Positions 3,261-46,983 are shown, numbered from the stretch's first letter. The stretch: DNA of 64,000 nt from Candidatus Latescibacterota bacterium (GCA_965116885.1 OZ220741.1:736001-800000); one strand, 5' to 3'. The notes: generated by a model not told the origin, from the sequence alone. A program made the numbers and translations.

Positions 3261-4352
3261 TTACGCCAACTGATACAACGCCCGCGCATTCTCCGCCAGA
3301 ATATTGCGCCGCACATCCTTATCCATACCCGAGGGCAGCGCCACATCGGGCGCGTCAAAATCCCAGTGGGGATAATCCGTGGCAAACATCAACTTATCGT
3401 TCATATCCATATGATCCATCATCTGAAAAAAGTACTCGCGTTGTGGGGGTTCTTCCATAGGTTGCGTACTGACCCAGAAATGATCGCGGACATACTCCGA
3501 CGGCAGCCGCTTCAAATGCGGCAACTCCACCTTCAGCTTCTCATAACAACTATCCAGCCGCCACATCAAAGGGGGCATCCACGCAAATCCCCCCTCAATC
3601 AACACCACTTTCAAATCCGGAAACGCTTCAAACACGCCTTCATACACCAAACTCGTCACCTGCGCCTGAAATGCCGTGGGCATGCCCCCGTGATCCTCAA
3701 TATAATGCGACGGCTTGCCCGCGCCCGTAATCGGACCTGCGCCTGTACCGCCAAAATGAATCGCAATGGGAAAACCATTTCTCACCGCAGCCTCATACAC
3801 TTTCCAGTACTTGCGACTGCCCAGAGGCTCCATAGTCCGCACCACCAGAAGCACCTGCACAAATCCCGGATGATCGCCCATGCGGTCGATCTCTGCCGCA
3901 GCCAACTCGCCATCTTCATAAGGTGCAATCACAGACCCGCGCAACCGGGGTTCCCGCCCGAGCCACGCATCGGCTTGCCAATCGTTCACAGCCTGCCCCA
4001 TCGCCGCAGCATAACGCAAATTTTGCTGCCCACCCACGCCGATCAACGGCGTTAAAATGCCGTAATCCATATCCCACTCATCCAGCAATTGCGCGCGCAA
4101 AAACTCCAAATCGGATCCCGGCGGTCCCGAAGGCGGCCAGGCATCGTGGCGCGCGGCATTTGGCACAGCGCGGGGATACGCCGACCCGATGCGTCCGCGA
4201 CCACCAATGGTTCGGTGATAATCGTGCCATTCCTCCGCCAGATATTGAAACCACATATCCCCAGACTTCATCGTCACATGAACATCGCAATCAATAACGG
4301 CTGTTTTTTCGCGCCTTTCTATTTTTACCTCATCCATCAGCGTATCAGCCAT
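3261..4352 (-). CDS. Amidohydrolase_2-fold metalloenzyme, probably a dinuclear oxygenase working with the adjacent Rieske protein
   Basis: IDCDVH, IAIHFG, VLIEGG and FATDYPHWDFD motifs; AAGGAGG RBS before ATG 4352. Confidence 0.8.
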   Translation of the reverse strand: MADTLMDEVKIERREKTAVIDCDVHVTMKSGDMWFQYLAEEWHDYHRTIGGRGRIGSAYPRAVPNAARHDAWPPSGPPGSDLEFLRAQLLDEWDMDYGILTPLIGVGGQQNLRYAAAMGQAVNDWQADAWLGREPRLRGSVIAPYEDGELAAAEIDRMGDHPGFVQVLLVVRTMEPLGSRKYWKVYEAAVRNGFPIAIHFGGTGAGPITGAGKPSHYIEDHGGMPTAFQAQVTSLVYEGVFEAFPDLKVVLIEGGFAWMPPLMWRLDSCYEKLKVELPHLKRLPSEYVRDHFWVSTQPMEEPPQREYFFQMMDHMDMNDKLMFATDYPHWDFDAPDVALPSGMDKDVRRNILAENARALYQLA

Positions 4353-4482
4353 CTCGTGCCTCCTTGAAATCAAAATGCTATTCAACCACATTATCAGAAG
4401 TATAACGCAACATATCGGGGAAAGCAAACCCGATATGCGCTGTATCTGCATCGTTCAAAAGATAGGACTTTGTCTCTTCAAT

Positions 4483-4548
4483 ATCAAATGCCCAACCCTT
4501 GACAGTAAGGAGATTTTTAAATAGAATCTGATGGCGGTTATAAAGACC
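4483..4548 (+). repeat. Direct repeat copy 1 (~65 bp) containing a sigma70 promoter
   Basis: atcaaatgcc..ccttgacagtaaggagatttttaaatagaatctgatg..tataaagacc recurs at 4888-4953. Confidence 0.9.
4499..4527 (+). promoter_or_regulatory. sigma70 promoter P1 facing the island
   Basis: TTGACA-17 nt-TAGAAT. Confidence 0.75.
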
Positions 4549-4643
4549 ATGGGCGAATGAGATTATTTATCATGAAGAGTGTGCATAATTCATTTGTTGT
4601 GGTGAAACGACCTGCAAAGCTTTTTTAATATTTTTCTTTTATG

Positions 4644-4819
4644 CCTTCGGCGACCTACTTTTTGTCACCAGCCACAAAAAGTAGGCAAAAAAGGCCGCTC
4701 TCAAACGCCGAAGGGCTAAGCACAGCGCAAACCGTTTCTTTAGGAATACACCATGTAGTGGCCTTCACAGTTGAGATACCATAAAAATGTCCGCTGCGAG
4801 ACGGACTCGCGCGCTGTGC
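4644..4819. other. Nested-hairpin structured element (MITE/REP-like or ncRNA)
   Basis: Stems ccttcggcg/cgccgaagg (4644-4652/4706-4714), cctactttttgt/acaaaaagtagg (4654-4665/4674-4685), gcacagcgc/gcgctgtgc (4720-4728/4811-4819), gtccg/cggac (4789-4793/4802-4806). Confidence 0.6.
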
Positions 4820-4887
4820 GTGATGGTTTTGACCAATGATTTTTCGCAATGACTTATCTGAAGTACTGTACAACGTTAATTTGTAAG

Positions 4888-4953
4888 ATCAAATGCCCGG
4901 CCTTGACAGTAAGGAGATTTTTAAATAGAATCTGATGATGATTTATAAAGACC
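4888..4953 (+). repeat. Direct repeat copy 2 containing the identical promoter core
   Basis: Near-identical to 4483-4548. Confidence 0.9.
4903..4931 (+). promoter_or_regulatory. sigma70 promoter P2 upstream of the DUF4338 gene
   Basis: TTGACA-17 nt-TAGAAT, about 120 bp before ATG 5051. Confidence 0.8.
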
Positions 4954-5050
4954 GCGAACACACCGGTGAGATTCATACTATCAACCTTCATAAAGGACTC
5001 AGGTTGTAATTGGCGTGACAAATCCCTAATTGAATTCTAACACCCGATGA

Positions 5051-6235
5051 ATGAACCTGATCTTGGTCATGAAACTTACGAAAAAAGAACGCTCCCTAAA
5101 AAAGCATCTGCTCAGTATGGTTGAGCAGTTGCCTTCTTCAGATGATGCGCTAAATAAAGAGCAGATCCGATCCTTACACGCAGGGAAACGCCTGTCCATC
5201 ATGGCATCTATGAATGGTTTTTTTAATCATCACATTGAACTTCTACGCGAGCATATTGCCAGTCCAAACGAAATCAATATCTCCAAGATTAAACCCTACT
5301 TAAGCGTCGTGGCGGGGGGAACAAGCGACTCTCAAATCTTCAACGCTGCCTCACTTCTCTGGTCCGTACCAGTAAGCAAAGGCTTCGGACGACGTATGCG
5401 TTACCTTGTAAGGGATAAAAACAATGGTAAACTCATCGGTATTATCGGCCTAACCGATCCCGTCTTTAACCTCACACCACGAGATGCCTGGGTTGGCTGG
5501 GATTCCAATGGTCGCAAGGAACGTTTAATTCATATTATGGATGCATTTGTGCTTGGTGCTATGCCACCCTACAGCAAAATTTTAGGTGGTAAACTGGTGG
5601 CCTTGTTGGCAACTTCGAGCGAAGTAGTAAAAAACTTCCGACTAAAATATCGCAACTATAAGGGTATAATAAGTGAAAGAAAGAAGGACCCTCGCCTTGT
5701 GCTTTTGACAACATCCTCAGCACTTGGTCGGTCATCGATATACAATCGCCTGCGAATTCCGGACAGTATTGCATTTCTCTCGAATGTTGAGAATAATCGA
5801 GTTCCAACATGGTACACACAAGGTTATGGACATTTCCATATCGACGATGATACATTCAGAAAACTACAGAATGTCCTCATTCGTCGTAAGCACTCCTACG
5901 CCAGAGGAAACAGGTTCGGTGATGGCCCAAACTGGCGTATCCGAGTCATTCGCAAAGCTACAATGGAACTGGGATTGAAAGCAGACATTCTTCAACACGG
6001 TATCCGTCGACAAGTTTTCGTTATCCCTCTCGCTCACAATACGCGCGACTTCCTTCTCGGAAGGGCAAAACGCCCTAAATATATCACGATGTCAGCGAAC
6101 CAAATTACTGACTATTGGATTGAAAGGTGGGCGAGTCCTCGGGCACGACGATTCCCAGAATGGAGGAAATGGAACCTCGAAGAAACGATTACGGACCTTC
6201 ATCGACTTCATATAGTCGCTAAAAAAATGGGCTAA
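5051..6235 (+). CDS. DUF4338 / Druantia DruA-like protein
   Basis: WSVPVSKGFGRRMRYLV, GKLIGIIGL.DPVF, GAMPPYSKILGGKLVALL, TTSSALGRSSIYNRL, TQGYGHFH and GDGPNWR blocks as recalled for DruA/DUF4338. Confidence 0.8.
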   Translation: MNLILVMKLTKKERSLKKHLLSMVEQLPSSDDALNKEQIRSLHAGKRLSIMASMNGFFNHHIELLREHIASPNEINISKIKPYLSVVAGGTSDSQIFNAASLLWSVPVSKGFGRRMRYLVRDKNNGKLIGIIGLTDPVFNLTPRDAWVGWDSNGRKERLIHIMDAFVLGAMPPYSKILGGKLVALLATSSEVVKNFRLKYRNYKGIISERKKDPRLVLLTTSSALGRSSIYNRLRIPDSIAFLSNVENNRVPTWYTQGYGHFHIDDDTFRKLQNVLIRRKHSYARGNRFGDGPNWRIRVIRKATMELGLKADILQHGIRRQVFVIPLAHNTRDFLLGRAKRPKYITMSANQITDYWIERWASPRARRFPEWRKWNLEETITDLHRLHIVAKKMG

Positions 6236-6239
6236 CAAC

Positions 6240-7403
6240 ATGTCACTAGCAAATCTGGACAGAGATGAACTTCGAAAAAGGATCGTAGAGGCATATAGCG
6301 CCGACGAACCACATCTTCAAAAGTTTCGTGAGTACGCAATACGCCTCCGAAACGGGGTGAAACCACTTCGTACCTATTCCGTCAATGCCGTCTCGTTTGT
6401 CTCCGCCGATGGAGGTGATAACCGTCTCACCTTCAATCCGGCAATTGTTGAACTTATACGTGTGGTAGATTCACGTGGTAATGAGCATGCGCTTGACGCC
6501 ATCTCCAGTACCATTAGTATTGAAGAACTGGAGAAAAGGGCCAAACAGGGATCAAGGCACACAATTACACCCTTGAAGCGATTAGCTCAGGATACAGGCA
6601 AAACGCTCAAACAGATGTCGTATCTTATCCGGGCACTCGGTACCCCTGGCAAAAGCACAGGAGCAATGCGATGCTACCGCGATATTGTGGAATGGGCTGT
6701 TCTATACGACCTTGTCGCTAACCCTAACCTTCAATGGGGAGGCGATACAATCTTGGTGCGAGATGGTCTCCTACGAACCAAATCGTTTTCTCGAGACATG
6801 TTTCCGCTACTTGATCAGAAAATTCGTGCCGGCATTGCCGCTCATGCCAAAAGAAATGTACAACTGTCATTGGTCGGTGTAGCTAAGCAAAGTGCCGTGC
6901 TTGGTCGCCTCGCTGTTGCTCTGGAACTTGAGGCGACATTCCACAAACCTTATCCCTGTTTTGTTCGGGTTGATCGTGATATTGAAGAAGAGTGCTACAA
7001 CTTCGATCGTACTTGGCTCGACACATATGAAACTACCGAAGAGGATGATACTGGCCGAAGACTTTACCAGTCCCTTGGAAAACTCTACCTCGTCAAATTC
7101 GGCGATAGACCAATGGATCCTGTCTGGCCTGTCGATATTGCCGTATGGCAGGTTCACCAAGCAGAACGCATCCTCGGACAACTGACGGTTGATGCTCAGC
7201 AGGGCTTTCCTATTCCGGACTATCCGATGTGCATCCAGCGAGCACACGATTTTGCAAAATTATCGGGACTCGAGATTCAGGATCTTCAGGATATGCTTCT
7301 TCAAGGGATGTGTAACAAACTTACGGCTGAAGAAACCGAACGCCTGCTTCGCCTGAAGTATTTAGGACAGACGCTGGCAAATCTCAGATACAAGGAGGCG
7401 TAA
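6240..7403 (+). CDS. NurA-like 5'-3' nuclease (RNase H-like fold)
   Basis: SADGG, LVRDG, LVGVAKQS and YPxxxxRAHxxAK motifs; lies directly upstream of a HerA ATPase. Confidence 0.75.
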   Translation: MSLANLDRDELRKRIVEAYSADEPHLQKFREYAIRLRNGVKPLRTYSVNAVSFVSADGGDNRLTFNPAIVELIRVVDSRGNEHALDAISSTISIEELEKRAKQGSRHTITPLKRLAQDTGKTLKQMSYLIRALGTPGKSTGAMRCYRDIVEWAVLYDLVANPNLQWGGDTILVRDGLLRTKSFSRDMFPLLDQKIRAGIAAHAKRNVQLSLVGVAKQSAVLGRLAVALELEATFHKPYPCFVRVDRDIEEECYNFDRTWLDTYETTEEDDTGRRLYQSLGKLYLVKFGDRPMDPVWPVDIAVWQVHQAERILGQLTVDAQQGFPIPDYPMCIQRAHDFAKLSGLEIQDLQDMLLQGMCNKLTAEETERLLRLKYLGQTLANLRYKEA

Positions 7404-7404
7404 T

Positions 7405-9453
7405 ATGTTGTTTGCGGACTCGCAAATCATGGGCACATTCAAAGGGTTCAATGAACGCGGCCTGGAGTTTGCAGCCGAAATCGTTGCTCCATACGATGCA
7501 AGCATGCTTGACCGGCCACAACTCGGCCAGTTTCTTCTCGTCGAACTCGGGTCACAAGAGGAAGCATCTCTCGGACGTATAACTCGCTTCGTCCCTTCCG
7601 GATTGTTAGCGACACCGGAAGGAGAAGATTACGTAAACACAATGCAGCGTAGGCAGCAAGAGGTCCCCGAGGATCTGAAGGAGCAACGTCTCAAATATCG
7701 CGTCCAGGTGAAATTGCTCGGAGCAGTCCGCACAACCGATAACGGAATCATATACGTTCCTTCGCAACGCAGACTACCGCATCTCGGTGCTCGTGTCGCC
7801 TTGCCCAGCGCTCAAGTTCTGCAAGAACTCTGCAAACTAAGCCAAGGCGAGACGGAGTTGGGAGTGTACGTATTGGGTGAATTCGTATTCAGCGGTACTG
7901 AACACGACCAAACCCAGCCAGAACTAATATCATTTAATCCACGTCTTCAAGTCACCTTCGACATAAACAATCTCGTTTCCCGACGCTCTGTCGTCTTTGC
8001 ACGTGCAGGCTATGGAAAGTCCAATCTCGTCAAGTTCCTTATTGCGGAGTTGTATCAAAAACAACCGATGACCTCTAACAACCGTCCTGTCGGCACACTA
8101 ATTTTCGACCCTGATGGAGAGTACTTTTGGCCTGACCGTGTAGCGGATCGTCCAGGGTTATGCGATGTGCCAAACTTAAAAGAACGACTCTTAGTGTTCA
8201 CCAACAGACCGGCTCCAAACGCATACTATGGCAGTTGGAAAGCTGGCGAGGTGAAGCTCGACATTCGAGACCTCTCCCCACGTGATGTAATCAGTATCGC
8301 AATTTCTTCTGATCGCCAAACCCAACAAAATGTGCTCAAGCTCAAGAGCGTCTCCGATTCTAACTGGCGTAAACTTGTTGATCTGACCCATCAACAGGGA
8401 CTACAGGCCAGTGATGAGGAAGTCGGTCAACTCCTTGGCTATACCGGGTCACAAATCTCTCAGAACGTAGCAGAAATTGGGGCTGCTCGTAGCAACATGT
8501 CTGGCGTAGTACGTACCCTCCATGACCCGGACAGCCAAGTGCTGTCGGGAACGCTACAAGCTTTGGCGAACGGGAGAATTGTTGTAATTGATATCAGCTT
8601 ATTGAGTTCGAGTGCTGGCAATATGCTCGCCGGACTGCTTCTCCGTAGAATATTCTCGCACAATCAGGAGCACTTCACGGGTGGAGATCCCATCATTCCC
8701 GTTGTTGCCATTGTGGAAGAGGCACAAAGTGTCCTTGGTCGTAATCTGGACGATACCAGTCCCTATGTCGAATGGGTGAAGGAAGGACGCAAGTACGATC
8801 TGGGAGCCATGCTTATCACACAACAACCGGGTGCGATGGCACCCGAACTACTTAGTCAGGCGGACAACTGGTTCTGTTTTCATTTACTCTCGGAAGGTGA
8901 TGCCAGTATTCTCGGAAGGTATAACTCTCATTACTCATCAGATATTCTCGCTCATCTTATCGCAGAACCTATTCCTGGTAACTGCTACATGTGGAGCGCA
9001 CCCCACCAACCCTTTGTTCTTCCCGTTCGCCTACGTGATTTTGGTGAAATCTATAAAGACAATATATGCAAAGATGAACAGGCGCAAGCCATTGAAGGCA
9101 CAGGTGCTAAAGAAGTGATTAAAGCAACTTCGGACGCAATGGCTCGCATTAAAGACAATATGGTGGAGCAATTGAAGGATCGCAGTACCAAGTACTATGT
9201 GGTCCCTAACAGGGTCAATGAGAGGCAAGAGTTACTTGGGATATCTGATGGGCAATTGTACTACCTCATCAAAAATAGCAAAAATCCTGAAGATAGCCGG
9301 ACAGAAAATGAACTAAAACGCCCAATTCTCACACTGTTGCTCGGCGAAGGAAATCTTCATATAGTCGAACATGATAGCAAGCAGTACTATTGCGCGACCC
9401 CTCAGGACTGGGAGCGCGTGATAGGAAGGCAACCGCCGCGCTCATACCTATAA
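7405..9453 (+). CDS. HerA/FtsK-like ATPase (HAS barrel + DUF87)
   Basis: Walker A ARAGYGKS, IFDPDGEY, Walker B IVEEAQ, KEGRKY, ITQQP, LLSQ; AAGGAGG RBS. Confidence 0.9.
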   Translation: MLFADSQIMGTFKGFNERGLEFAAEIVAPYDASMLDRPQLGQFLLVELGSQEEASLGRITRFVPSGLLATPEGEDYVNTMQRRQQEVPEDLKEQRLKYRVQVKLLGAVRTTDNGIIYVPSQRRLPHLGARVALPSAQVLQELCKLSQGETELGVYVLGEFVFSGTEHDQTQPELISFNPRLQVTFDINNLVSRRSVVFARAGYGKSNLVKFLIAELYQKQPMTSNNRPVGTLIFDPDGEYFWPDRVADRPGLCDVPNLKERLLVFTNRPAPNAYYGSWKAGEVKLDIRDLSPRDVISIAISSDRQTQQNVLKLKSVSDSNWRKLVDLTHQQGLQASDEEVGQLLGYTGSQISQNVAEIGAARSNMSGVVRTLHDPDSQVLSGTLQALANGRIVVIDISLLSSSAGNMLAGLLLRRIFSHNQEHFTGGDPIIPVVAIVEEAQSVLGRNLDDTSPYVEWVKEGRKYDLGAMLITQQPGAMAPELLSQADNWFCFHLLSEGDASILGRYNSHYSSDILAHLIAEPIPGNCYMWSAPHQPFVLPVRLRDFGEIYKDNICKDEQAQAIEGTGAKEVIKATSDAMARIKDNMVEQLKDRSTKYYVVPNRVNERQELLGISDGQLYYLIKNSKNPEDSRTENELKRPILTLLLGEGNLHIVEHDSKQYYCATPQDWERVIGRQPPRSYL

Positions 9454-9660
9454 TATGAGCGTGACGGGCCGGACAAGACAGCGAACTCTACATCAAGTAG
9501 CGCACGGAACGGTAAGCAATTAAAAGCGAAATGACTTAACCGCTGGCTCATATGGATCAAATGCGCCAACCTCGCGTGCGTGTTTGCACTATTCGCCATC
9601 AAAAAAATATAATAATCTACACAGAACAAAAGCCGTTATACGGCAGGAAGCGAGAAAGAG

Positions 9661-10422
9661 ATGCCTGATCAGTCGCACCTGGATGACCGTTATTTTGTGG
9701 ACAATACTGTCTATAATTGCCCTTTTTGCAACCGTCGAAATGTCTCGTATTACATATATGATAAGGTATCTTTTGATTGGACTGAGGACAAACCCTGTCA
9801 TGTTTACTTTGCCCGATGTGGTTCGTGCAGCGGAAAATCAATGCATTTGTCCTTTAGAGACTTGAAACTATATGGTATAGGCGATGGACGTAGTTCTCTA
9901 TTCTTATCTTCTCAGATGTCTTCAGAGTCACTTGATGATCAGTTTTTTTATTCCGTTCCAACATCTTTTTTTGTTTTGGATAAACGCATTCCCCGAATTC
10001 TGCGTGAGCTTCTCATCGAGGCCGAGGGTTCTCTCAAGAGTAACTTTCTAACCGGTGCCTCAGCTTGTGCTCGTAAGATCATCTATGAACTGGGATCGCT
10101 TCAAGAGGTTGATGGTGACAATTACGAAGATCGTATCAAATCACTTAAAGACAAACATCCGGAAGTAGAGCCGACGTATTTTGACACGCTCCTTACAATC
10201 CAACAGGTGACAAGTTCCAAGGTTCATGAGGATTCATACGATGGCTGGAAGTCGCAACATTTACAAATTATCCTTGCATCCCTTCGAGAAATTCTTCACG
10301 AGTTATATGTAGTGCCAGCATTGCGCGATGACAGGAGAAAATCAATTCTGGATTTAAAAAAGGAGTTGATTCCAGAGGATGTTTCAGTATCGGAGAGCAG
10401 CGATGAAGAGACAGGCACCTGA
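9661..10422 (+). CDS. Zn-ribbon plus DUF4145 (HEPN-like) protein
   Basis: CPFC...CGSC N-terminus; IPxxLRELLIEA..SL...GASACARKIIYE...KVH helical C-terminal domain. Confidence 0.6.
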   Translation: MPDQSHLDDRYFVDNTVYNCPFCNRRNVSYYIYDKVSFDWTEDKPCHVYFARCGSCSGKSMHLSFRDLKLYGIGDGRSSLFLSSQMSSESLDDQFFYSVPTSFFVLDKRIPRILRELLIEAEGSLKSNFLTGASACARKIIYELGSLQEVDGDNYEDRIKSLKDKHPEVEPTYFDTLLTIQQVTSSKVHEDSYDGWKSQHLQIILASLREILHELYVVPALRDDRRKSILDLKKELIPEDVSVSESSDEETGT

Positions 10423-10460
10423 CAAGTGTACCATCAGATGAATTTGTAGATTTTAACGAT

Positions 10461-10751
10461 ATGATTATTCGTTCTGTTCGCCATAGAGGCTTGCGCCATC
10501 TGCTTGAGGATAATAATCCCAGGTTCCTGCGACAAGACTTGGTTGACCGGGTACGCAAAATTTTGACGGCCCTGATCCTCGCCGAACTTATGGACAACTT
10601 TATCGCCAATGCACCACCCGGCTGGCGTATCCATCGGCTCTCAGGTGACCGGCAGAGTGAATGGAGCATTTCGGTATCTGGCAATTGGCGGATTACCTTT
10701 ACACAAGATGGCGAATACATTGACCGCTTGAATTTGGAGGATTATCACTAA
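10461..10751 (+). CDS. higB: HigB-like (RelE/ParE superfamily) toxin
   Basis: IRSVRHRGL, PPGWRIHRLSGDR, WSISVSGNWRITF and C-terminal EDYH. Confidence 0.9.
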   Translation: MIIRSVRHRGLRHLLEDNNPRFLRQDLVDRVRKILTALILAELMDNFIANAPPGWRIHRLSGDRQSEWSISVSGNWRITFTQDGEYIDRLNLEDYH

Positions 10752-11056
10752 TGGCTGACAACGGCATTGAAATAACCATGACACCTTCGCATCCCGGAGA
10801 TTTCATCCGCACGGAAATTGTCGAGGAACTGGGCTTGAGTGTTACAGAGGCAGCCGAGATTCTGGACGTTCATCGAGCCACTCTTTCCGACCTGTTGAAC
10901 AGCAATACAACCCTATCAGCGGAGATGGCACTGCGTATTGAGAAAGCCTTTGGCATCAGCATGGATACACTGTTGCGAATGCAAGCGTGGTACGACGCCG
11001 CGCAAATGCGGGCGCGTGCTAATGAGATAGAAGTCAAACGCTATCAACCTGCTTGA
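10751..11056 (+). CDS. higA: HigA antitoxin (XRE HTH)
   Basis: HPGDFI, LGLSVTEAA..L.V.R.TLS, SAEMALRIEKAFG, LRMQ; start overlaps the higB stop (TAATG). Confidence 0.9.
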   Translation: MADNGIEITMTPSHPGDFIRTEIVEELGLSVTEAAEILDVHRATLSDLLNSNTTLSAEMALRIEKAFGISMDTLLRMQAWYDAAQMRARANEIEVKRYQPA

Positions 11057-11097
11057 AAACAACCGCAGACGAACTTCGATTTTTTGAGAAAAAAACA

Positions 11098-11316
11098 ATG
11101 AAAATATCTTATGATCGGGAAGTGGATGCGCTGTACATTTGCTTCAAAGAAACAACCGTTACAACGAAACATCTCGAAGATGGTATTGCGCTGGATTACG
11201 ATGAGGAAGACCGCCTCGCGGGCATTGAAATTCTCGACGCCCTGAAGCGGCTGGATGATCCAGAGATATTCAAACAGGTCATCATTGAAGACATCGCACT
11301 CGGTGAAATCCGTTAG
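11098..11316 (+). CDS. DUF2283 family small protein
   Basis: MKISYDREVDALYI...LDYD..GIEILDA pattern. Confidence 0.8.
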   Translation: MKISYDREVDALYICFKETTVTTKHLEDGIALDYDEEDRLAGIEILDALKRLDDPEIFKQVIIEDIALGEIR

Positions 11317-11329
11317 TTATAAATTTGCT

Positions 11330-11959
11330 ATGAATCTTGAGAACAAAATACTTTTAACGCCCGATACTTCTAACTATCCAGCGGCATTACAGCGTTGTTC
11401 CGATAATGGGTGTCTGCCGACGGTCACAGCGCAGGGCAACCTCGATTTACTCGACAGTACATTGCTCGGCTTCTTCTGCTCGGTGCGCTCACCCGGCGAT
11501 ACAATCCTCAAGACCTACGATCTTGCGCGGACACTCCGGGATACAGACGCGACAATCATCGGCGGTTTTCAGTCGCCAATGGAAAAGGAGTGTCTGGATT
11601 TGTTGTTGCGGGGCACGGCACCCGTCGTCGTCTGCCCGGCGCGGGGACTCAATCGCATGCCGAAAAGCTGGCAGAAACCGCTCGCCGAAGGACGCATGCT
11701 AATTCTTTCCTTTTTCAACGGCAACATCCATCGCCCAACCGCAGCCATAGCAACCCGGCGCAACGCGTACATCGCCGCACTCGCCGACCGCATCCTCATC
11801 GCCCATGCAGAACCGGGTGGCAAAACAGAGACCCTGTGCAAGAACGCGCTGGCTCAAAACAAGCCGGTGTTCGTCCTGGACTCACCTGACAATGCCCACC
11901 TCATAGAACTCGGCACCATACCTATCCCGGCTGACAGCCTCGAAAAATTTACCTCTTGA
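11330..11959 (+). CDS. Stand-alone DprA/SMF (SLOG) domain protein
   Basis: YPxxL, GNLDLL, IIGGFQSPMEK, RRNAYIAALAD, AEPGGKT; lacks the SAM and winged-helix domains of full DprA. Confidence 0.75.
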   Translation: MNLENKILLTPDTSNYPAALQRCSDNGCLPTVTAQGNLDLLDSTLLGFFCSVRSPGDTILKTYDLARTLRDTDATIIGGFQSPMEKECLDLLLRGTAPVVVCPARGLNRMPKSWQKPLAEGRMLILSFFNGNIHRPTAAIATRRNAYIAALADRILIAHAEPGGKTETLCKNALAQNKPVFVLDSPDNAHLIELGTIPIPADSLEKFTS

Positions 11960-11991
11960 CCAAAAAGTAATTTTTAAATACCGTCTTTCTA

Positions 11992-13896
11992 ATGAAACTA
12001 ATCTATTTTCTCATTCCCTTACTCTTTTGTGGTTGTCTCGCACCCGATCCAGGGCACCGTGCAAAAACGGGTGAAGCCGCACAATCCAACGCGGCGATCC
12101 ACGAAACGCGCGCACCCGTACAAATCGACCCAAAAATCCTGATCAACCGCACCTTTGGGGAAGCTCCCATCCTCGCCGAAAAAGTAAAAAACGGAGAACT
12201 CCCTGCCGTATCTGAACGCCTGCCTGAAAATCCACTCATCGTCGTCCCCCTGGACACCATCGGACAATACGGCGGCGTCTTGCGACGCGCACTCACAGGC
12301 GACATCATCCAAACAGCGGGAACCAACAAAACACTGAGCGAAAACCTCATGGGATTTTCGCGTCCCCTGCCCGACAGCATCGTACACAACCTCGCGGAGA
12401 GTTTTGAATTTCGCGACGAAGGCCGAACCGCAATTTTCAAAATCCGCAAAGGCATCAAATGGTCAGACGGCGTACCATTTACAGTTGACGACATATTGTT
12501 CTGGTACTACGACATGACCTTTGACGACAACGCCCGCCCCCACAACCAGCCCGTGCCCCCCTCAGTGTGGGTCGTCGATGGCAAACCCATTGACCTCAAA
12601 AAAATCGACGACCACACCCTTGAAGTCTCATCATCCAAACCCCTCGGCCGCGTATTACACGCCCTGTGCTTAGACGTCATAGCACAGCCCAAACACCATC
12701 TGTCACACCTGCACCCCCGCTACAACCCCGAAGCGACATACGAAGAATTTCGAGAACAAGCCACCAATGCCATGGTCATCATGAAACCCGGCATGCCGCG
12801 CCTATCCGCATGGGTCCCCGTCGAATGGATCCGCGGGCAACGCATCGTTTATGCGCGCAACCCCTACTATTGGAAAATCGACACAGCCGGCAATCAATTG
12901 CCATACGCGGACCGCATCGAATTTACCGTCATCCAGGACCCCCAGGTTATCCTGCTCAAATTTGTCAACGGCGAACTCGACCTGTTTGGCCGCTACTCTC
13001 GCATCAACATGTTTCCCACCCTGCGCACGGAAGAAAAAAAGGGCAAATTCAAATTGCGGATCACCGGTCCAGACCGAGGTCCCGCCTATTACCTCAATTG
13101 GGACACCCCAAAACCCGCCCTGCGAGAAGCCTTTCGCAACCGCGACGTACGCATAGCCCTGTCTTATGCGATCAACCGCGAAGAAATCAACCAGATCGTC
13201 TATCACGGCCTCCTCGACCCCGCGGGCTACTCCTTCGCGCCCTCTAACCCGCACTATTCAGAAGCCGCCTATCGCAAATACGCCAAATTCGACCCCGACA
13301 AATCCCACGACCTCCTCGACAAAGCCGGATACCGCGACACAGATGGCGATGGTTGGCGCGAACTCAAAGACGGATCGCGTTTTGAACTCAACATCGATGT
13401 CGTCCCCGGCGTTGGCGTCGATGTTTCCGAACTCGTCTCCGAACACTGGCGCGACATCGGCATCAAAGCCAACCTGAACATTTCCCTGCGCGACATTGTA
13501 TGGCCCCGCCGCCTCAACGGCGAATTTGACATTCACCACTGGGGCCTCGAAGGCCCCGCCGACCCCCTGGGCCGCCTCAATGACTGGGCAATTATGGCAC
13601 CCACCGTCCCCTTCTGGCACCGCAACGCCTCCAAAGAAGGTCCCGCGTGGTTGCACGAAGCCACAACGCGCATTAAAAAAGTATTGACAACCGTAGATCC
13701 CATAGCCGTTCATGAACACATGACAAAAGTGCGCGACCTCCACACCGACAACGTACCCGTCATCGTCGTCGGCTCCGCCTATTCCATCTGGGGAGCCAGC
13801 ACGCGACTCGGCAATGTCCCCATGCAGGGCAGCGCCGCCGACGTACACCGCGGTTGGGGTCGCCCCGTATTTCACGAACAGATATTTATCAAATAG
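11992..13896 (+). CDS. ABC transporter substrate-binding lipoprotein (family 5)
   Basis: Lipobox LFCGC; GELPAVSERLPENP, KWSDGVPFTVDD, RNPYYWKIDTAGNQLPY. Confidence 0.9.
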   Translation: MKLIYFLIPLLFCGCLAPDPGHRAKTGEAAQSNAAIHETRAPVQIDPKILINRTFGEAPILAEKVKNGELPAVSERLPENPLIVVPLDTIGQYGGVLRRALTGDIIQTAGTNKTLSENLMGFSRPLPDSIVHNLAESFEFRDEGRTAIFKIRKGIKWSDGVPFTVDDILFWYYDMTFDDNARPHNQPVPPSVWVVDGKPIDLKKIDDHTLEVSSSKPLGRVLHALCLDVIAQPKHHLSHLHPRYNPEATYEEFREQATNAMVIMKPGMPRLSAWVPVEWIRGQRIVYARNPYYWKIDTAGNQLPYADRIEFTVIQDPQVILLKFVNGELDLFGRYSRINMFPTLRTEEKKGKFKLRITGPDRGPAYYLNWDTPKPALREAFRNRDVRIALSYAINREEINQIVYHGLLDPAGYSFAPSNPHYSEAAYRKYAKFDPDKSHDLLDKAGYRDTDGDGWRELKDGSRFELNIDVVPGVGVDVSELVSEHWRDIGIKANLNISLRDIVWPRRLNGEFDIHHWGLEGPADPLGRLNDWAIMAPTVPFWHRNASKEGPAWLHEATTRIKKVLTTVDPIAVHEHMTKVRDLHTDNVPVIVVGSAYSIWGASTRLGNVPMQGSAADVHRGWGRPVFHEQIFIK

Positions 13897-13900
13897 CGAT

Positions 13901-14899
13901 ATGACCAACTACATCATCCGCCGTCTATTGCACATGATCCCCACGCTGATCCTGATCTCAATGGTCAGCTTTGTGGTCATACAAGCACCACCGGGCGATA
14001 TGCTCACCTCTCGCCTCGCCGAATTGGCCGAACAGGGCGAACTCGGATCTGAAAGTGCAATGGCGCAAATCGACGCCCTGCGCGAACGCTATGGCCTCAA
14101 CGACCCGATCTATGTGCAATACATCCACTGGATCTGGAAAATCGTCAGCGAAGGCGACTTCGGACAATCCTTCACATACGAAATGGACGTGATGGAACTC
14201 CTGGCCGAACGTCTGGGACTCACACTTACTCTCACACTCTCCACATTGATCTTCACCTGGATCGTCGCCATACCCATTGGCATCTACTCTGCCACCCGAC
14301 AGTATTCGATAGGCGATTACGGCTTTACCTTTCTCGGATTCATCGGTCTGGCCACGCCAAACTTTTTGCTGGCTCTGGTTATTATGTTCATTCAAGTCGC
14401 CGTCTTCGAAGCCGAATCCGTAGGCGGCCTTCTCTCTCCCGAATACATAGGCGCTGCCTGGTCGTGGGCAAAATTTGTCGATCTCCTCAAGCATATATGG
14501 GTCCCCATCATCGTCATCGGCACGGGCAGCACAGCGGGCATCATCCGCATTATGCGCGGCAACCTGCTCGACATACTCGGCCAACAGCACATTCAAACCG
14601 GGCGCGCCAAGGGCCTCAAAGAAGGCAAAGTCATCGTCAAATACGGCGTGCGCATCGCCATCAACCCCCTCGTCAGCCGCCTGGGCCTCGAACTGCCCAG
14701 CCTGCTCTCTGGCGCCGTTGTCACCGGCATCGTACTCGGCCTGCCAACAGCTGGCCCCATTTTTCTCACCGCACTCACATCTCAAGACATGTATCTGGCA
14801 GGTGCATTCCTGCTCCTATCCGCCACCTTCTTGCTCATCGGCAACTTATTAGCCGATATTCTCCTGGCATGGCTCGATCCGAGGATTCGCTATGAGTAG
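13901..14899 (+). CDS. ABC transporter permease (OppB/DppB-like)
   Basis: YIIRRLL, GDFGQSF, TGRAKGL loop; multiple TM helices. Confidence 0.9.
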   Translation: MTNYIIRRLLHMIPTLILISMVSFVVIQAPPGDMLTSRLAELAEQGELGSESAMAQIDALRERYGLNDPIYVQYIHWIWKIVSEGDFGQSFTYEMDVMELLAERLGLTLTLTLSTLIFTWIVAIPIGIYSATRQYSIGDYGFTFLGFIGLATPNFLLALVIMFIQVAVFEAESVGGLLSPEYIGAAWSWAKFVDLLKHIWVPIIVIGTGSTAGIIRIMRGNLLDILGQQHIQTGRAKGLKEGKVIVKYGVRIAINPLVSRLGLELPSLLSGAVVTGIVLGLPTAGPIFLTALTSQDMYLAGAFLLLSATFLLIGNLLADILLAWLDPRIRYE

Positions 14900-16034
14900 T
14901 TTCGTCGAAACACCTCTCGACGAGCGCGTGGAAACCCTCGTTGAAGAAAATACAACCACCGCCACCTATTCACAGCGCCAGCTCATCTGGCGGCGTTTCA
15001 AAAAACACCGCGCCGGAGTCATTGGTGGATGTGTGGTCATCTTTCTCTACATCTGCGTCTTTCTGGGCGAATTTCTTGCCCCACACGACCCGGCGCATCG
15101 TTATTACGACTATGTACACTTGCCCGCCCAGCGCATCCACATATTCTCTCAAGACGGCATCCACTGGCCTTTTGTCTATGGCATCAAAAAATCTTTTGAC
15201 CTGCAAACCGGTATCAAAACCTATACCGAAGACGCCTCTGTGCGCTATCCCGTGTACCCCTTTGCGCGAGGTGCCGAATACACATTCTATGGCCTCTTTA
15301 CCACCGACATCCACATGTTTGGCACCGGCAAAGGCAATCCCCTGTTCCTCCTTGGCACCGACCGCTTTGGGCGCGACATGCTCTCGCGCATCATCGCAGG
15401 AGGCCGCATCTCCCTCACCATTGGCCTGCTCGCCGTATTCATCAGCCTCACCCTCGGCTCTACACTCGGTGTGATCTCTGGCTATTACGGCGGCAATATC
15501 GACAATATCATCCAGCGCATCATCGAACTCATCTTCGCATTTCCATCTATCCCCATCCTCATGGCCCTCAGCGCAATATTGCCCCCCGAATGGCCTTCGC
15601 ATCTGGTCTTCATGGGCATTGTCACCGTACTCGCGCTCGTGGGATGGGGCGGACTCGCCCGTGAAATACGCGGCAAAACTCTGTCCATCCGCGAAGCCGA
15701 CTTTGTACTGGCCGCCCGCGTGGCTGGCGCCAAAGACCACCGCATCATCTTTCGACACCTGCTACCGTCCATGTTCAGCCACATCATCGTCATAGCAACC
15801 CTCGCTATTCCCGGATTTATCCTCGGCGAAAGCACATTGAGTTTTCTGGGCCTGGGCATCAAACCGCCCATGACCTCCTGGGGACTGCTCTTATCCGACG
15901 CCATGAACATTCACTCGCTCAGTCTCTATCCCTGGCTTCTCATACCGGGAGTCTGCATCATCATCGCCGTCCTCGCCTTCAACTTTCTCGGCGATGGCCT
16001 GCGCGATGCAGCCGATCCTTATTCAAGCAGATAA
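14892..16034 (+). CDS. ABC transporter permease (OppC/DppC-like)
   Basis: LGTDRFGRDMLSR, FVLAARVAGA, ESTLSFLGLG, GDGLRDAADP. Confidence 0.9.
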   Translation: MSSFVETPLDERVETLVEENTTTATYSQRQLIWRRFKKHRAGVIGGCVVIFLYICVFLGEFLAPHDPAHRYYDYVHLPAQRIHIFSQDGIHWPFVYGIKKSFDLQTGIKTYTEDASVRYPVYPFARGAEYTFYGLFTTDIHMFGTGKGNPLFLLGTDRFGRDMLSRIIAGGRISLTIGLLAVFISLTLGSTLGVISGYYGGNIDNIIQRIIELIFAFPSIPILMALSAILPPEWPSHLVFMGIVTVLALVGWGGLAREIRGKTLSIREADFVLAARVAGAKDHRIIFRHLLPSMFSHIIVIATLAIPGFILGESTLSFLGLGIKPPMTSWGLLLSDAMNIHSLSLYPWLLIPGVCIIIAVLAFNFLGDGLRDAADPYSSR

Positions 16035-16037
16035 AAT

Positions 16038-17024
16038 ATGACCCAATCGCTCTTAGACATACGCGACCTCAAAACCTATTTTCACACCGACGATGGCGTC
16101 GTGCGCGCGGTCGATGGCGTATCTCTATCCATAGCGCCCCAAAAAACACTCGGCGTGGTCGGCGAATCCGGCTGTGGAAAAAGCATCACCGCCTTTTCAA
16201 CCATGCGCCTCATCCCGAGTCCCCCGGGCAAAATCGAACACGGGCAAATCCTCTTTCACAAAGACCCCGAAAGCGATCCCATTGACCTGACACAACTCAA
16301 CCCCAAAGGCACGCAGATGCGCGACATCCGCGGGAATGACATCGCCATGATTTTTCAGGAGCCTATGACCTCTCTCAGCCCTGTACACACCGTGGGCAAT
16401 CAAATTTCCGAAGCGATCATGCTGCATCAAAATGCAGACAAAAAAGAAGCCCGCGAACGCGCCATCGATGCCCTCAACAAAGTGCGCCTACCGCGTCCCG
16501 ACCGCCAGGTCGATGCGTATCCCCATGAACTCTCAGGTGGCATGCGCCAGCGCGCTATGATCGCAATGGCCCTCTCGTGCAACCCCAGCTTACTCATCGC
16601 CGACGAACCCACGACAGCCCTCGATGTCACAGTCCAGGCCCAAATCCTGGACCTGATGCGCCATCTCCAATCCGACATCGGCATGGCGATCATGCTCATC
16701 ACCCACGACCTCGGCGTCGTCGCCAGCATGGCCGATTATGTCGCAGTAATGTACCTGGGCAAAATCGTCGAATACGCCGACACGCGCACCGTCTTCAAAA
16801 ATCCACGCCATCCCTACACCAGGGGCCTGCTAAACTCCATCCCACAAGTGGGCCAAAAACGCCGCCTGGTACCCATTGAAGGCACAATCCCCGACCCTTT
16901 TGAAATCCCACAGGGCTGTGCCTTTGCCCCTCGGTGCCCGCACGCAATGGACAAGTGCCGCGAAGAACCGCAACTCCTCGAAATCGAATCGGGGCATCGC
17001 GTCAGTTGCTGGCTGGAAAACTGA
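16038..17024 (+). CDS. ABC transporter ATP-binding protein (OppD-like)
   Basis: [27 protein letters not shown]-terminal Cys cluster. Confidence 0.92.
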
Positions 17025-17047
17025 CCGCTTCGCAAATGGAATCGGAC

Positions 17048-18076
<1,029 letters not shown>

Positions 18077-18100
18077 AAGTCGTTTTAAAACCAAAGCAAC

Positions 18101-18130
18101 CACCGATGAACACCGATAAACACAGATAAA
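18101..18130 (+). repeat. Three tandem 10-mers (CACMGATRAA)
   Basis: caccgatgaa caccgataaa cacagataaa. Confidence 0.8.
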
Positions 18131-18152
18131 AGGCACCGTCCATCACCATCCC

Positions 18153-18180
18153 TTGACTTGATACTATTATTTAGTATATT
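18153..18180 (+). promoter_or_regulatory. Promoter with an embedded palindromic operator; probably a leaderless TA transcript
   Basis: TTGACT-16 nt-TATATT, ATG 5 nt downstream; inverted repeat atacta-ttatt-tagtat at 18161-18177. Confidence 0.65.
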
Positions 18181-18185
18181 CAAAA

Positions 18186-18464
18186 ATGGACTGGACCGTA
18201 ACGATAGCAGGAAAGGCGCAAAAGCAAATCGGACGTTTGCCCCAACAGGTTAAAAAGAACCTTCTTGCTCTAATCAGAGAGATTGAAGTAGCAGGTCCAG
18301 TCCGAGGGAACTGGCCTAACTACAGTTCCCTTGGAAAAAATCGGCACCATTGTCATATTAAAAAGGGAAGACCCACTTACGTTTCTGTTTGGGAAGTGAA
18401 GGACAAAAATATCAAATTGGTAGAGGTGACGTATGCAGGTACTCACGAAAAAGCACCGTACTGA
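18186..18464 (+). CDS. RelE/ParE-superfamily toxin
   Basis: 92 aa basic protein, W.V....KAQKQI..LP, HHCHIKKGRPTY, YAGTHE; upstream of an XRE gene. Confidence 0.75.
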   Translation: MDWTVTIAGKAQKQIGRLPQQVKKNLLALIREIEVAGPVRGNWPNYSSLGKNRHHCHIKKGRPTYVSVWEVKDKNIKLVEVTYAGTHEKAPY

Positions 18465-44973: not shown

Positions 44974-45014
44974 TTTTCTACTCTGTTAGAATGGGCGCTG
45001 AACATATAGTTAAA

Positions 45015-45049
45015 AAGCTCCAACAAGATGAACTGCTTGTTGGAGCTTT
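45015..45049 (-). terminator. Hairpin terminator downstream of the TIGR04255 triad
   Basis: aaagctccaacaag-atgaactg-cttgttggagcttt, perfect 14-bp stem, T-run on the minus strand. Confidence 0.7.
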
Positions 45050-45066
45050 GCAAATTAAAAAATGGG

Positions 45067-45630
45067 TTAATCCGGTAAACCAATTCGACCCCTAAAATTG
45101 TAAAACCTTTGCATCAGATGCTGAACATAAATTGGTGGTACAACTGCAATCCTATCTATACCGCCCTCTTCAATTGCACGATAAATATTTAAAGTTGCAA
45201 TACCAAAGACATTTTTGAAATCCATATACAAATCAGGTAGAGGTCGGACTTGATCACTATTTTCAATCGACGCTTCTTGAAGATGGTGATACCTTTCGTT
45301 TTGGTTACTCTTCACATTTCTAAACAAGCTCGAATTGAGCTGACTTCGCTGCCGAATATTTTCTTCCTCATAAACGTCACAAAAAAAAATCTGAGCAAGC
45401 TCATTTTGTGGCTTTGGGGGGCCAGTAAATCGCGATACATAATCCCACTCTAAATCACAAGCCGGGTTCATCACCATTACCAGATTATGTTCTATAGGAT
45501 TAAATATTATTTCCAAATCTCGTGATGAAGCTTGAGCAGGTACATCTGCCACAAACTCATGTACACCATATAGTATCTCACCCTGGATTAAGGCTCCAAC
45601 TTCGGGGGAAGGTTCATATTTAAACGCCAC
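45067..45630 (-). CDS. Hypothetical protein, probably PemK/MazF-like fold
   Basis: QGEI, VMVMNPACDL, ERYHHL, MDF, HLMQRFYNFRGRIGLP pattern. Confidence 0.55.
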   Translation of the reverse strand: MAFKYEPSPEVGALIQGEILYGVHEFVADVPAQASSRDLEIIFNPIEHNLVMVMNPACDLEWDYVSRFTGPPKPQNELAQIFFCDVYEEENIRQRSQLNSSLFRNVKSNQNERYHHLQEASIENSDQVRPLPDLYMDFKNVFGIATLNIYRAIEEGGIDRIAVVPPIYVQHLMQRFYNFRGRIGLPD

Positions 45631-45639
45631 GTCACGTCC

Positions 45640-46197
45640 TCAACCGTCAATAATCAACTCTGGTCGAGGAATGGTTTTCCCGACTTTGGCTATTTTAGGT
45701 TGCGTCTCTTGCTCTTGGCTCTTCAACCGGAACCGGGCTGGCGGTGGTGGTTGTAAATGAAATTGAAGTATATCCGCCAATGTTTCCAAAGCCTCTTCTA
45801 AGCCTTGAGATGGCAAACCCGATATGAGAAAATGACAAAAGAATCTCTGCGCGATCTCCCTGCTCTCGCCCTCCTGCTCATTGTAAAAACTAATCTCTTG
45901 CCCCAAAGCACCCACGGTACCACTAAACCTCCAATATCCCTTTACATTTTCTATTTCATTCTGGTTCAAGAGCATATCTGAGCTTCGGGATGCGATCTCT
46001 CTACTCTCGCCCTCTTGCTCATTGTAAAAACTAATCTCTTGTCCTAAATCTCCCACAGTACCACTAAACTTCCAATATCCCTTTACATTTTCTATTTCAT
46101 TCTGGTTCAAGGGCATATCTGAGCTTCGAGGAGAGAGTCCATCGGAAGAGGTCCCCCGCTGTGCGATTAAAGGATTTAAGAATTGAAGGAATTGCAT
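45640..46197 (-). CDS. Hypothetical protein with a 47-aa tandem duplication
   Basis: AAGGAG RBS 8 nt before ATG 46197, inside the upstream gene; alternative start 46116. Confidence 0.6.
   Translation of the reverse strand: MQFLQFLNPLIAQRGTSSDGLSPRSSDMPLNQNEIENVKGYWKFSGTVGDLGQEISFYNEQEGESREIASRSSDMLLNQNEIENVKGYWRFSGTVGALGQEISFYNEQEGESREIAQRFFCHFLISGLPSQGLEEALETLADILQFHLQPPPPARFRLKSQEQETQPKIAKVGKTIPRPELIIDG
45850..46129. repeat. 141-bp tandem duplication (2 copies)
   Basis: gcgatctc.ct.ctctcgccctc.tgctcattgtaaaaactaatctcttg... at 45851 and 45992. Confidence 0.9.
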
Positions 46198-46876
46198 CAA
46201 ACTCACTCCTTTCTTCGGTATAACAGTCTGTATCTATCAAATACTGCTCTTGATTATTTTTATAACTTAGACCATGTCGAAGCCTGACCTTCGATAGTCC
46301 TTTGATATCAACAATATCGAATTCTGCCTCAGAAATGATACGGGACGGTGCAGTCTGAAGGGTTGTATCGCCAAGCAACCCAATGAGAGCCGGATTCAAT
46401 AATTCTGACCACGCTATACCATCTAAACCGATTTTTTCTCGCTCAATTATATCAATATACCTGAGTCCGATTCTGGTGTAAAAATTGGGTTTATACTCTT
46501 CGTCCAATGCCTCAGCAACCAGATTCATCTCCTGACTGAAATTCTCCCAACTCTTGTAGCCATTGTCCGTGAGAGCGATAAAGCCCTGAGTCAGATTGAC
46601 ATATTTTTTTTTATTTTCAGATGCAAACTTATGATTAGGCCCTTCGGGAGTTTTAAGAGAACCTATATTCGAAAGTTGTTCTACTATCCTGGAGAATTCC
46701 TCTGGAAGATATTGATTCTCTCCCTCATAATAGGGATATTGAGACCTTATTCGATCTTGGAAATTAGACGGCGGTTCACTTGCAATTTTCAAAATTTCAG
46801 GAAATCGCAACTGACAAATAACCCTCTGCAATGGGTTTTTTGCGAATATTATTCTGTCAGATTTGGGAAAGGCCAT
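46097..46876 (-). CDS. TIGR04255 family protein
   Basis: FAKNPLQRVICQLRFP, FQDRIR..YP, Y.SWENF, RIGLRYID.I, YLID.D. Confidence 0.8.
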   Translation of the reverse strand: MAFPKSDRIIFAKNPLQRVICQLRFPEILKIASEPPSNFQDRIRSQYPYYEGENQYLPEEFSRIVEQLSNIGSLKTPEGPNHKFASENKKKYVNLTQGFIALTDNGYKSWENFSQEMNLVAEALDEEYKPNFYTRIGLRYIDIIEREKIGLDGIAWSELLNPALIGLLGDTTLQTAPSRIISEAEFDIVDIKGLSKVRLRHGLSYKNNQEQYLIDTDCYTEERSEFDAIPSILKSFNRTAGDLFRWTLSSKLRYALEPE

Positions 46877-46983
46877 ATCATAAATTGTTATTTTGATGAA
46901 ACTCAAACTTTCACAGAATGAAATAGGCAAAACACTTTACGTCAAGCACTTTTTGGACGCTTGACCTATCAAATGGGTTTCTG

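Follow-up and report, generated by a model that had tools for sequence, protein, structure and literature searches.

What does a DruA protein do when it is encoded without the genes that accompany it in Druantia? Since 2018 this protein has been the defining component of type I Druantia, and in the literature searched we found no function assigned to it. The question is raised by a 64,000-nucleotide (nt) stretch of DNA from a Candidatus Latescibacterota bacterium (GCA_965116885.1 OZ220741.1:736001-800000; hereafter the window, to which all coordinates refer), in which a druA-like gene is followed after 4 nt by a gene for a NurA-family nuclease and this, after 1 nt, by a gene for a HerA-family ATPase (genes 1, 2 and 3; Table 1). 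A first interpretation of the DNA, the sequence-only reading, had described three co-directional genes with these gaps as a candidate undescribed system, and the coordinates of the open reading frames (ORFs) confirm that arrangement. The nuclease and ATPase resemble TdpB and TdpA, and the three genes probably constitute a defence cassette with a TdpAB-like effector. The contribution of DruA is a separate matter. At a probability of roughly 0.4, we favour a mobile anti-invader cassette in which DruA would mark or discriminate self DNA and the TdpAB-like machine would degrade foreign DNA.

The first gene encodes a bona fide full-length DruA. The protein matches Pfam DruA (PF14236) at an E-value of 1.5e-79 and the PADLOC DruA model at 5.5e-126 (419 bits), the latter over model positions 12-387 of 407. 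As in type I Druantia, a full-length DruA is therefore the first gene, but here the nuclease-ATPase pair stands in place of DruB, DruC, DruD and the DruE helicase. A tblastn search (E<=0.01) with a PADLOC-confirmed canonical plasmid locus found none of DruB, DruC, DruD or DruE in the window, where the largest ORFs encode 969 and 1,031 amino acids (aa). The absence of these four genes, claimed from the outset, thus stands, and because of it the cassette is not type I Druantia.

Gene 2 has no match in Pfam, PADLOC v2.0.0 or NCBIfam 20. A profile built from 57 relatives matched TdpB in the PDB (8wet_G) at 2.2e-17, and the NurA of Sulfolobus solfataricus at 0.18. With the AlphaFold2 (AF2) model of the protein (predicted local distance difference test, pLDDT, 90.9), Foldseek returned two TdpB chains first, 8wfd_G and 8wet_G (E 4e-12 to 1e-11, template-modelling (TM) scores 0.64/0.68), followed by the NurA proteins of Thermococcus kodakarensis, S. 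solfataricus and Deinococcus radiodurans (E 6e-6 to 5e-4). In the nearest ESM Atlas clusters, 17-30% of members carry Pfam NurA (PF09376). Conserved positions include D57 (53 of 57 sequences), E151 (55 of 57), D175 (48 D and 8 E), D299 (50 D and 7 E) and H336 (45 of 57), columns of the acidic and histidine kind that RNase H-like nucleases require, some of which would be catalytic. Judged by profile and model, the gene 2 product is a NurA-family nuclease closest to TdpB, with predicted nuclease activity. The family is large, with 887 clusters at 90% identity (E<=0.001, among 8,000 candidates scored) and 297 representatives at 50% identity; where its members are named in the sources, they are named only 'hypothetical protein'.

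The gene 3 product is, from its alignments, a HerA-family ATPase closest to TdpA with both Walker A and Walker B retained. It matches Pfam DUF87/HerA (PF01935) at 1.7e-26, and its best sequence match in the PDB is TdpA (5.8e-23), in an alignment that stops at query residue 549. The Walker A motif and the EEAQ, KEGRKY and TQxP blocks align with those of TdpA, and GYGKSN (202-207) and EEAQ (438-441) are invariant in 16 gene 3 sequences. Beyond the ATPase core, there is a C-terminal extension of ~130 aa that TdpA does not have. This is the most variable part of the protein, with 40% mean identity among triads versus 77% for the core, and it has no Pfam match and no usable Atlas match. All three family assignments made by the sequence-only reading, DruA, NurA and HerA, are therefore upheld, that of gene 2 by profile, fold and language-model neighbours only.

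The proposal that a NurA-HerA pair serves as the effector was sound as to the families; it overlooked the likeness to TdpAB. TdpABC is reportedly a phosphorothioate-based defence system of thermophiles, and TdpAB is the restriction half of Tdp, with translocase-nuclease structures in PDB entries 8wet, 8wfd and 8y1k. In the available part of one report, tdpC alone makes the phosphorothioate (PMC12914056). The cassette and TdpABC both consist of a HerA-family ATPase gene, a NurA-family nuclease gene and one further enzyme gene. They differ in that the further gene is TdpC in one and DruA (DUF4338, GNAT-like) in the other, in the 14-17% identity of the cassette nuclease to TdpB in structural alignment, and in the additional C-terminal residues of the cassette ATPase. 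As its third gene is DruA, the cassette cannot be called Tdp. Phosphorothioate, Dnd or Ssp modification genes were not found in gene 1 or in six other ORFs of the surrounding island that were scanned, the sequence of TdpC itself not being among the comparisons. Since the nearest solved relatives of the pair are TdpA and TdpB, a restriction module, the pair is better described as TdpAB-like than as a repair NurA-HerA, and this likeness supplies a described precedent for an effector of this kind in a scheme of modifying self and degrading non-self.

Other defence systems with a HerA-family ATPase are more distant. SIR2-HerA and DUF4297-HerA share this component (the cassette ATPase matches PADLOC HerA models weakly, at best with 65.9 bits, and PDB entries at 1e-10 to 1e-9) but have SIR2 or DUF4297 effectors, no NurA-family nuclease and no DruA. 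Overall the cassette would resemble TdpABC most closely in its working and shares DruA with Druantia, and the combination looks undescribed. No description of a DruA-NurA-HerA triad was found in the open-access literature searched, subscription papers and bioRxiv supplements lying outside that search. As anticipated, no existing model in PADLOC v2.0.0 or NCBIfam covers the nuclease. Because it is unmodelled, PADLOC v2.0.0 and NCBIfam 20 miss the cassette, and a lone 'DruA' call would be read as an incomplete Druantia. In kind, the combination is unsurprising, as defence modules recombine.

The triad recurs well beyond the window. Scanning one genome per species for the nuclease, with gene content then determined by tblastn, identified 23 related loci in 11 named phyla and in unclassified bacteria. 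An apparently intact triad with the same gene order is present in 17, and DruA adjoins the pair in 21, preceding it in 20 and following the ATPase gene in one (L019), in support of the sequence-only reading. The ATPase gene is present in 22 loci, the contig ending before it in the other (L013); it is interrupted by ~1.3 kb in L016, and L022 and L023 are fragmented. Identity to the proteins of the window across phyla is 62-87% for the nuclease, 60-86% for the ATPase and 35-77% for DruA. Mean pairwise identities in 18 complete triads are 70%, 69% and 49%, respectively, so that DruA is the fastest diverging of the three. Nei-Gojobori dN/dS ratios from four unsaturated pairs are 0.09-0.19 for DruA, 0.04-0.08 for the nuclease and 0.06-0.16 for the ATPase, values that indicate that all three genes are maintained by purifying selection.

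Genes flanking the triad are not conserved among the loci, and no other gene of the island travels with it. We compared 134 of the 166 ORFs within ~4 kb of the loci with Pfam (28 short or overlapping ORFs were set aside by eye, as were 4 of >1,000 aa), and 39 locus ORFs, including these 4, with PADLOC. Defence or toxin-antitoxin genes lie beside the triad in 9 of the 23 loci, a number that rises to 10 with the inclusion of an HNH-repeat protein in L015, in keeping with the defence-island setting proposed for the window. They include GmrSD/HEC-05 (L010-L012), HsdR or HsdM (L011, L012), a type ISP gene (L013), a dGTPase (L012), a methylase with a NotI-like gene and Dsr1 (L020), PDC-S01 with Fic and PIN (L002), HipA (L004, L005) and a DruE-like helicase (L014). 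Neighbours in the remaining 13 loci are housekeeping or unannotated genes. With regard to type I Druantia, a DruE-like gene is near the triad in only 2 of the 23 loci. In L014, from a member of the Phycisphaerae, a 1,694-aa DruE-like helicase is encoded directly after the triad in convergent orientation (13232-18316, minus strand; PADLOC DruE3 287 bits, DruE1 267 bits), and in L002 similarity to the DruE N-terminus lies at ~1316-2266, ~6.5 kb upstream of the triad. The sequence that interrupts the ATPase gene in L016 (12372-13647, a Syntrophales genome) contains an ORF of 429 aa that matches nothing in Pfam or PADLOC, and may be an uncharacterised insertion element.

The composition of the window agrees with the earlier description of the cassette as lacking the host strand skew and standing at the head of an island. 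In 2-kb windows from 4001 to 12000, GC skew is -0.07 to +0.03 and GC content 0.45-0.50, versus -0.17 to -0.33 and 0.52-0.57 in the flanks. The cassette is thus at the head of an island whose composition is foreign. This composition, the patchy spread over 11 phyla at high identity and the unconserved flanks establish that the cassette is horizontally mobile and its three genes co-inherited.

Such a distribution bears on two further explanations. The family assignments, NurA and HerA, would also suit an ordinary double-strand-break repair pair with an accessory protein, and the cassette shares folds and presumably architecture with the NurA-HerA end-resection machinery. However, its genes have no Mre11 or Rad50 neighbours, unlike the repair-type operon of a Pontibacillus replicon (only 26% identical), and they are mobile, carry DruA, are foreign in composition and are distributed patchily at 62-87% nuclease identity. 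A repair function is extremely improbable, and among solved structures the pair is closest to TdpA and TdpB and stands apart from repair homologues. A search of plasmids with the ATPase gave nothing beyond SIR2-HerA loci and a repair-type NurA-HerA-Mre11-Rad50 operon, all 25-26% identical to it. Alternatively, the cassette could serve its own mobile element, in DNA processing, segregation or competition between elements, rather than protect the host from phages. HerA/FtsK ATPases are common in the DNA pumping of mobile elements, a theme of PMC10853773 in the part available, long DruA forms on plasmids lie beside FtsK-like genes, and the cassette is itself in a foreign island. But no integrase, relaxase or replication gene was found to travel with the triad in scans of the island and flanking ORFs, tblastn with the nuclease gave no match on 72,556 plasmids or in 50,697 phage records, and the neighbours are defence rather than transfer genes, so this explanation is very unlikely. 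The DNA of the nuclease and ATPase genes also had no match among 5,426 Escherichia coli genomes.

DruA itself occurs in other company. Homologues were found in 16 plasmid records, among them canonical DruA-B-C-D-E loci on Ralstonia, Nitrosococcus and Pseudomonas plasmids, where PADLOC confirmed DruB, DruC and DruD at 508-854 bits and whose DruAs are 41-45% identical to that of the window. A haloarchaeal plasmid (NZ_CP127176.1) encodes a 705-aa DruA followed by SspF-, SspG- and SspH-like genes, and in Hymenobacter a long DruA is encoded near an FtsK-like gene. The DUF4338-DndFGH/SspFGH-like modules, represented by this plasmid and by those in the accessible text of PMC10853773, resemble the cassette in joining DUF4338 to a restriction module that is driven by ATP and has a HerA/FtsK-class ATPase as its last component. 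They differ in that DruA is long (705 aa) or fused to DndF and in an SspF/G/H-like effector with a restriction endonuclease rather than a NurA-like protein. DUF4338 also occurs in forms of ~700 aa and of ~1,050-1,230 aa (L029, 7164-10322; L030, 4993-8747; P0399-P0411), some of which have a P-loop domain after DUF4338 (weak nSTAND3/AAA_22 matches); on a Roseivivax plasmid, a long form adjoins MzaB-like ATPase genes. Among 21 long DruA homologues there is no fusion with the nuclease or with the ATPase.

The sequence-only reading had envisaged a separate DUF4338 clade next to NurA-HerA, and this did not hold. In a tree of 19 triad and 4 type I DruAs, with an outgroup of 3 long forms and without the truncated or fragmented L006, L022 and L023, three canonical type I DruAs nest inside those of the triads. 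An approximately unbiased (AU) test, run after the tree had been seen and on a tree with long branches, rejected the grouping of all triad DruAs together (p 0.00027). This nesting argues that a DruA module has moved between unrelated ATP-driven effector sets, of which three are now apparent: DruBCDE, the TdpAB-like pair and an SspF/G/H-like set.

How might DruA act with the TdpAB-like pair? By analogy with TdpAB, the HerA-like protein would form a hexameric ATP-driven pump for double-stranded DNA with NurA-like nuclease subunits bound, and this pump-nuclease would thread and degrade invading DNA. DruA would take the place of the phosphorothioate synthase TdpC: a basic, GNAT-like enzyme, it would mark host DNA covalently with an acyl-type group, and this mark would halt the pump-nuclease, the weakest step of the scheme. 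Specificity may be set or read by two variable regions, the ends of DruA and the C-terminal domain of the HerA-like protein.

A role in marking DNA is offered tentatively, and several observations favour it. Two of the three partner modules of DruA, the TdpAB-like and the SspFGH-like, are restriction modules that are paired elsewhere with a DNA-modification module. The protein is strongly basic (isoelectric point 10.58; 67 K+R versus 33 D+E), and among 37 sequences it has 48 invariant columns, the core being conserved and the ends variable. It also diverges faster than its two partners. The top matches of its AF2 model (pLDDT 87.4, from a 37-sequence alignment) in a fold search of the PDB are nearly all GNAT acyltransferases, at weak values (E 0.013-0.2, TM 0.2-0.57), and include KKT23, TmcA (E 0.04), TacT, NAT10 and Naa50, so that nucleic-acid acetyltransferases are among the neighbours. 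Phage Mu Mom modifies DNA adenine and, with TmcA/NAT10, represents nucleobase-acting GNAT-type folds in the fold lists, all of weak similarity to DruA. In the portion available, PMC10853773 also places DUF4338 in the GNAT fold. Two preprints, as far as their accessible text goes, add to this. One reports a new single-molecule real-time (SMRT) 'm6A' signal at CAGCTGNC that is confined to cells in which type I Druantia, a system without a methylase domain, is expressed (10.1101/2024.04.14.589459), and in the other the nuclease domain of type I DruE is an inactivated one only (PMC12458937).

Other observations weigh against a marking role. No PDB fold matched the DruA model at E<=0.001, so the GNAT assignment is weak, and Mom is only at rank 25 (E 0.049). 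The GNAT and Mom likenesses suggested for DUF4338 are thus both weak. DruA showed no clear target-recognition domain. The SMRT signal at CAGCTGNC comes from an unreviewed preprint and, in its available part, is not assigned to DruA (10.1101/2024.04.14.589459). Two loci of one lineage with shared housekeeping flanks (L007 and L009) have an apparently intact nuclease and ATPase, 77-78% identical to those of the window, with no DruA within 10 kb, and tblastn with 20 DruAs (E<=10) found no DruA remnants there. A pair without DruA is awkward for a strict dependence on modification, as unmarked self DNA should then be harmed. Burroughs and Aravind, in the accessible part of their paper, regard the DUF4338 GNAT of DndF fusions not as a DNA modifier but as a co-effector whose targets are proteins (PMC10853773).

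This last view, extended to the cassette, would make DruA a co-effector of the GNAT-toxin type that acylates proteins or charged tRNA on infection, imposing abortive arrest beside the nuclease machine. In the same source, so far as available, the DUF4338 GNAT appears beside HEPN, NERD and kinases in a list of 'co-effector' domains that vary at the N-terminus of DndF (PMC10853773). TacT, a toxin that acetylates tRNA, is in the fold list together with a further GNAT toxin, and the ~1,200-aa forms fuse DruA to a P-loop domain. But DruA is a near-constant first gene (21 of 23 loci) rather than an optional one, its 394 aa include additional basic domains that are conserved, it has no conserved neighbour resembling an antitoxin, and type I Druantia is built around it. 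Such a co-effector is quite unlikely.

The divergence of the three proteins is relevant to a further alternative. In partial rank correlations, DruA divergence follows that of the HerA C-terminal domain (0.49, permutation p ~5e-4) and the HerA core (0.40) and not that of the nuclease (-0.03). The statistic is crude, since fast-evolving parts correlate through shared resolution, but it favours a link of DruA with the HerA-like protein over one with the nuclease, as would fit shared specificity or physical contact. This pattern could reflect a DruA that modifies nothing and is instead a sensor, loader or regulator, binding DNA or a phage product together with the HerA-like motor and licensing the nuclease on foreign DNA (free ends, replication intermediates) while leaving the host genome unmarked. 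The fast-evolving parts are DruA and the C-terminal extension of the HerA-like protein, and in L007 and L009 the pair is tolerated in the absence of DruA, as this would allow. Preprints on type III Druantia, in their available parts, describe a sensor protein with an effector helicase-nuclease that acts on DNA intermediates. Yet 48 invariant columns speak for an enzyme-like conserved core, and one type of DruA working with partners as unrelated as DruBCDE, the TdpAB-like pair and SspFGH-like proteins is hard to square with specific docking; given also the crudeness of the correlation, we consider a non-modifying DruA rather unlikely.

The reading of DruA as a self-marking enzyme could be taken further. 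DruA would then be the founder of a new class of DNA self-marking enzymes, a GNAT-fold transferase whose mark, neither methyl nor phosphorothioate, is read by three or more unrelated ATP-driven machines, the DruBCDE, TdpAB-like and SspFGH-like ones. We regard this broader proposal as doubtful. If true, it would explain the 'm6A-like' SMRT signal of methylase-free type I Druantia, and the three-gene cassette would be a minimal system for solving the mechanism of type I Druantia. A DruA type shared with TdpAB-like and SspFGH-like genes gives DruA a concrete, testable role, and with 3 genes in 4.4 kb the cassette is a far smaller test system. Its usefulness lies in this minimal size and in the connection that it makes between DruA and modification-dependent restriction modules.

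Two other similarities of DruA were recorded. Residues 151-211 (window 5501-5683) resemble ubiquitin in phmmer searches of the PDB (poly-ubiquitin E 3e-21 summed over 6-7 repeats, di-ubiquitin 0.002-0.04). These matches were rejected as a summed weak match across a two-ubiquitin junction; the AF2 model places the residues in a helix-strand-helix core. A PPYSxxLGGK segment, in which P172, P173, Y174, G180 and K181 are invariant, follows the central strand of this model. In the BFVD, the viral proteins closest to the DruA model in structure come from giant viruses and are uncharacterised (Faunusvirus 6.5e-17, Yasminevirus 2.5e-14, Dasosvirus 5.5e-8), and a fragment from an uncultured tailed phage is also a structural neighbour (5.5e-8). 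From these modelled structures, viruses may carry DruA-like proteins.

Table 1. Features of the cassette and its surroundings, in positions of the 64-kb window
Feature	Coordinates	Strand	Description
druA-like gene (gene 1), 394 aa	5051-6235	+	DUF4338; GNAT-like core ~95-340; variable ends 1-90 and 341-394
TdpB-like NurA-family nuclease gene (gene 2), 387 aa	6240-7403	+	Predicted from profile, fold and language-model neighbours
TdpA-like HerA-family ATPase gene (gene 3), 682 aa	7405-9453	+	N-terminal region, ATPase core, variable C-terminal extension (541-682)
Sigma-70-like promoter, TTGACA-17-TAGAAT	4903-4931	+	Predicted; 11/12 matches; ~120 nt upstream of druA
Low-GC island without strand skew	4452-11990		From composition, Pfam and PADLOC; holds the cassette and the ORFs described in the text

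An AAGGAGG sequence lies inside the 3'-end of gene 2, 7 nt ahead of the third ATG. This Shine-Dalgarno sequence within gene 2, together with the 1-nt gap, suggests that translation of genes 2 and 3 is coupled. The consensus promoter said to precede the operon is present as predicted (Table 1), and an identical second copy of it lies at 4499-4527. Promoter-like sites are no more frequent from 4400 to 10000 than in shuffled sequences (6 observed versus 7.5 +/- 2.3), so the notable feature is solely the quality of the site nearest druA. It lies within an exact 37-nt repeat (4901-4937, identical to 4497-4533), part of a promoter-bearing element of ~70 nt that is duplicated 404 nt apart (4483-4558 and 4888-4963). 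A weaker copy (62% identical) is present at 11954-11990, just ahead of a peptide ABC-transporter gene at 11992. Between the first two copies there are short hairpins and a 72-aa ORF on the minus strand with no Pfam match. The repeat may be a duplicated native promoter left by insertion of the island, or may drive a small transcript.

From Pfam matches, the island is flanked by an amidohydrolase gene on the minus strand and a peptide ABC-transporter operon on the plus strand. Its remainder (9661-11959) encodes a 253-aa protein of no Pfam or PADLOC family, a HigB/HigA pair, a DUF2283 protein and a DprA-like protein that also matches PADLOC PsyrA (55 bits), with no PsyrT partner. No tRNA gene was found in the window, Rfam gave no match from 4300 to 12200 at E<=0.1, and the promoter repeat excepted, no long terminal repeats bound the island. 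Elsewhere the skew of the window is unusually strong and uniform, at -0.2 to -0.37 across most 2-kb windows, and foreign insertions are conspicuous. A second low-GC patch with weaker skew (45000-47000, GC 0.40) contains three minus-strand ORFs (187, 188 and 277 aa) with no Pfam match; it sits between MFS transporter and sugar-phosphate-isomerase-like genes, and a PL8 polysaccharide lyase gene and a sulfatase gene adjoin it.

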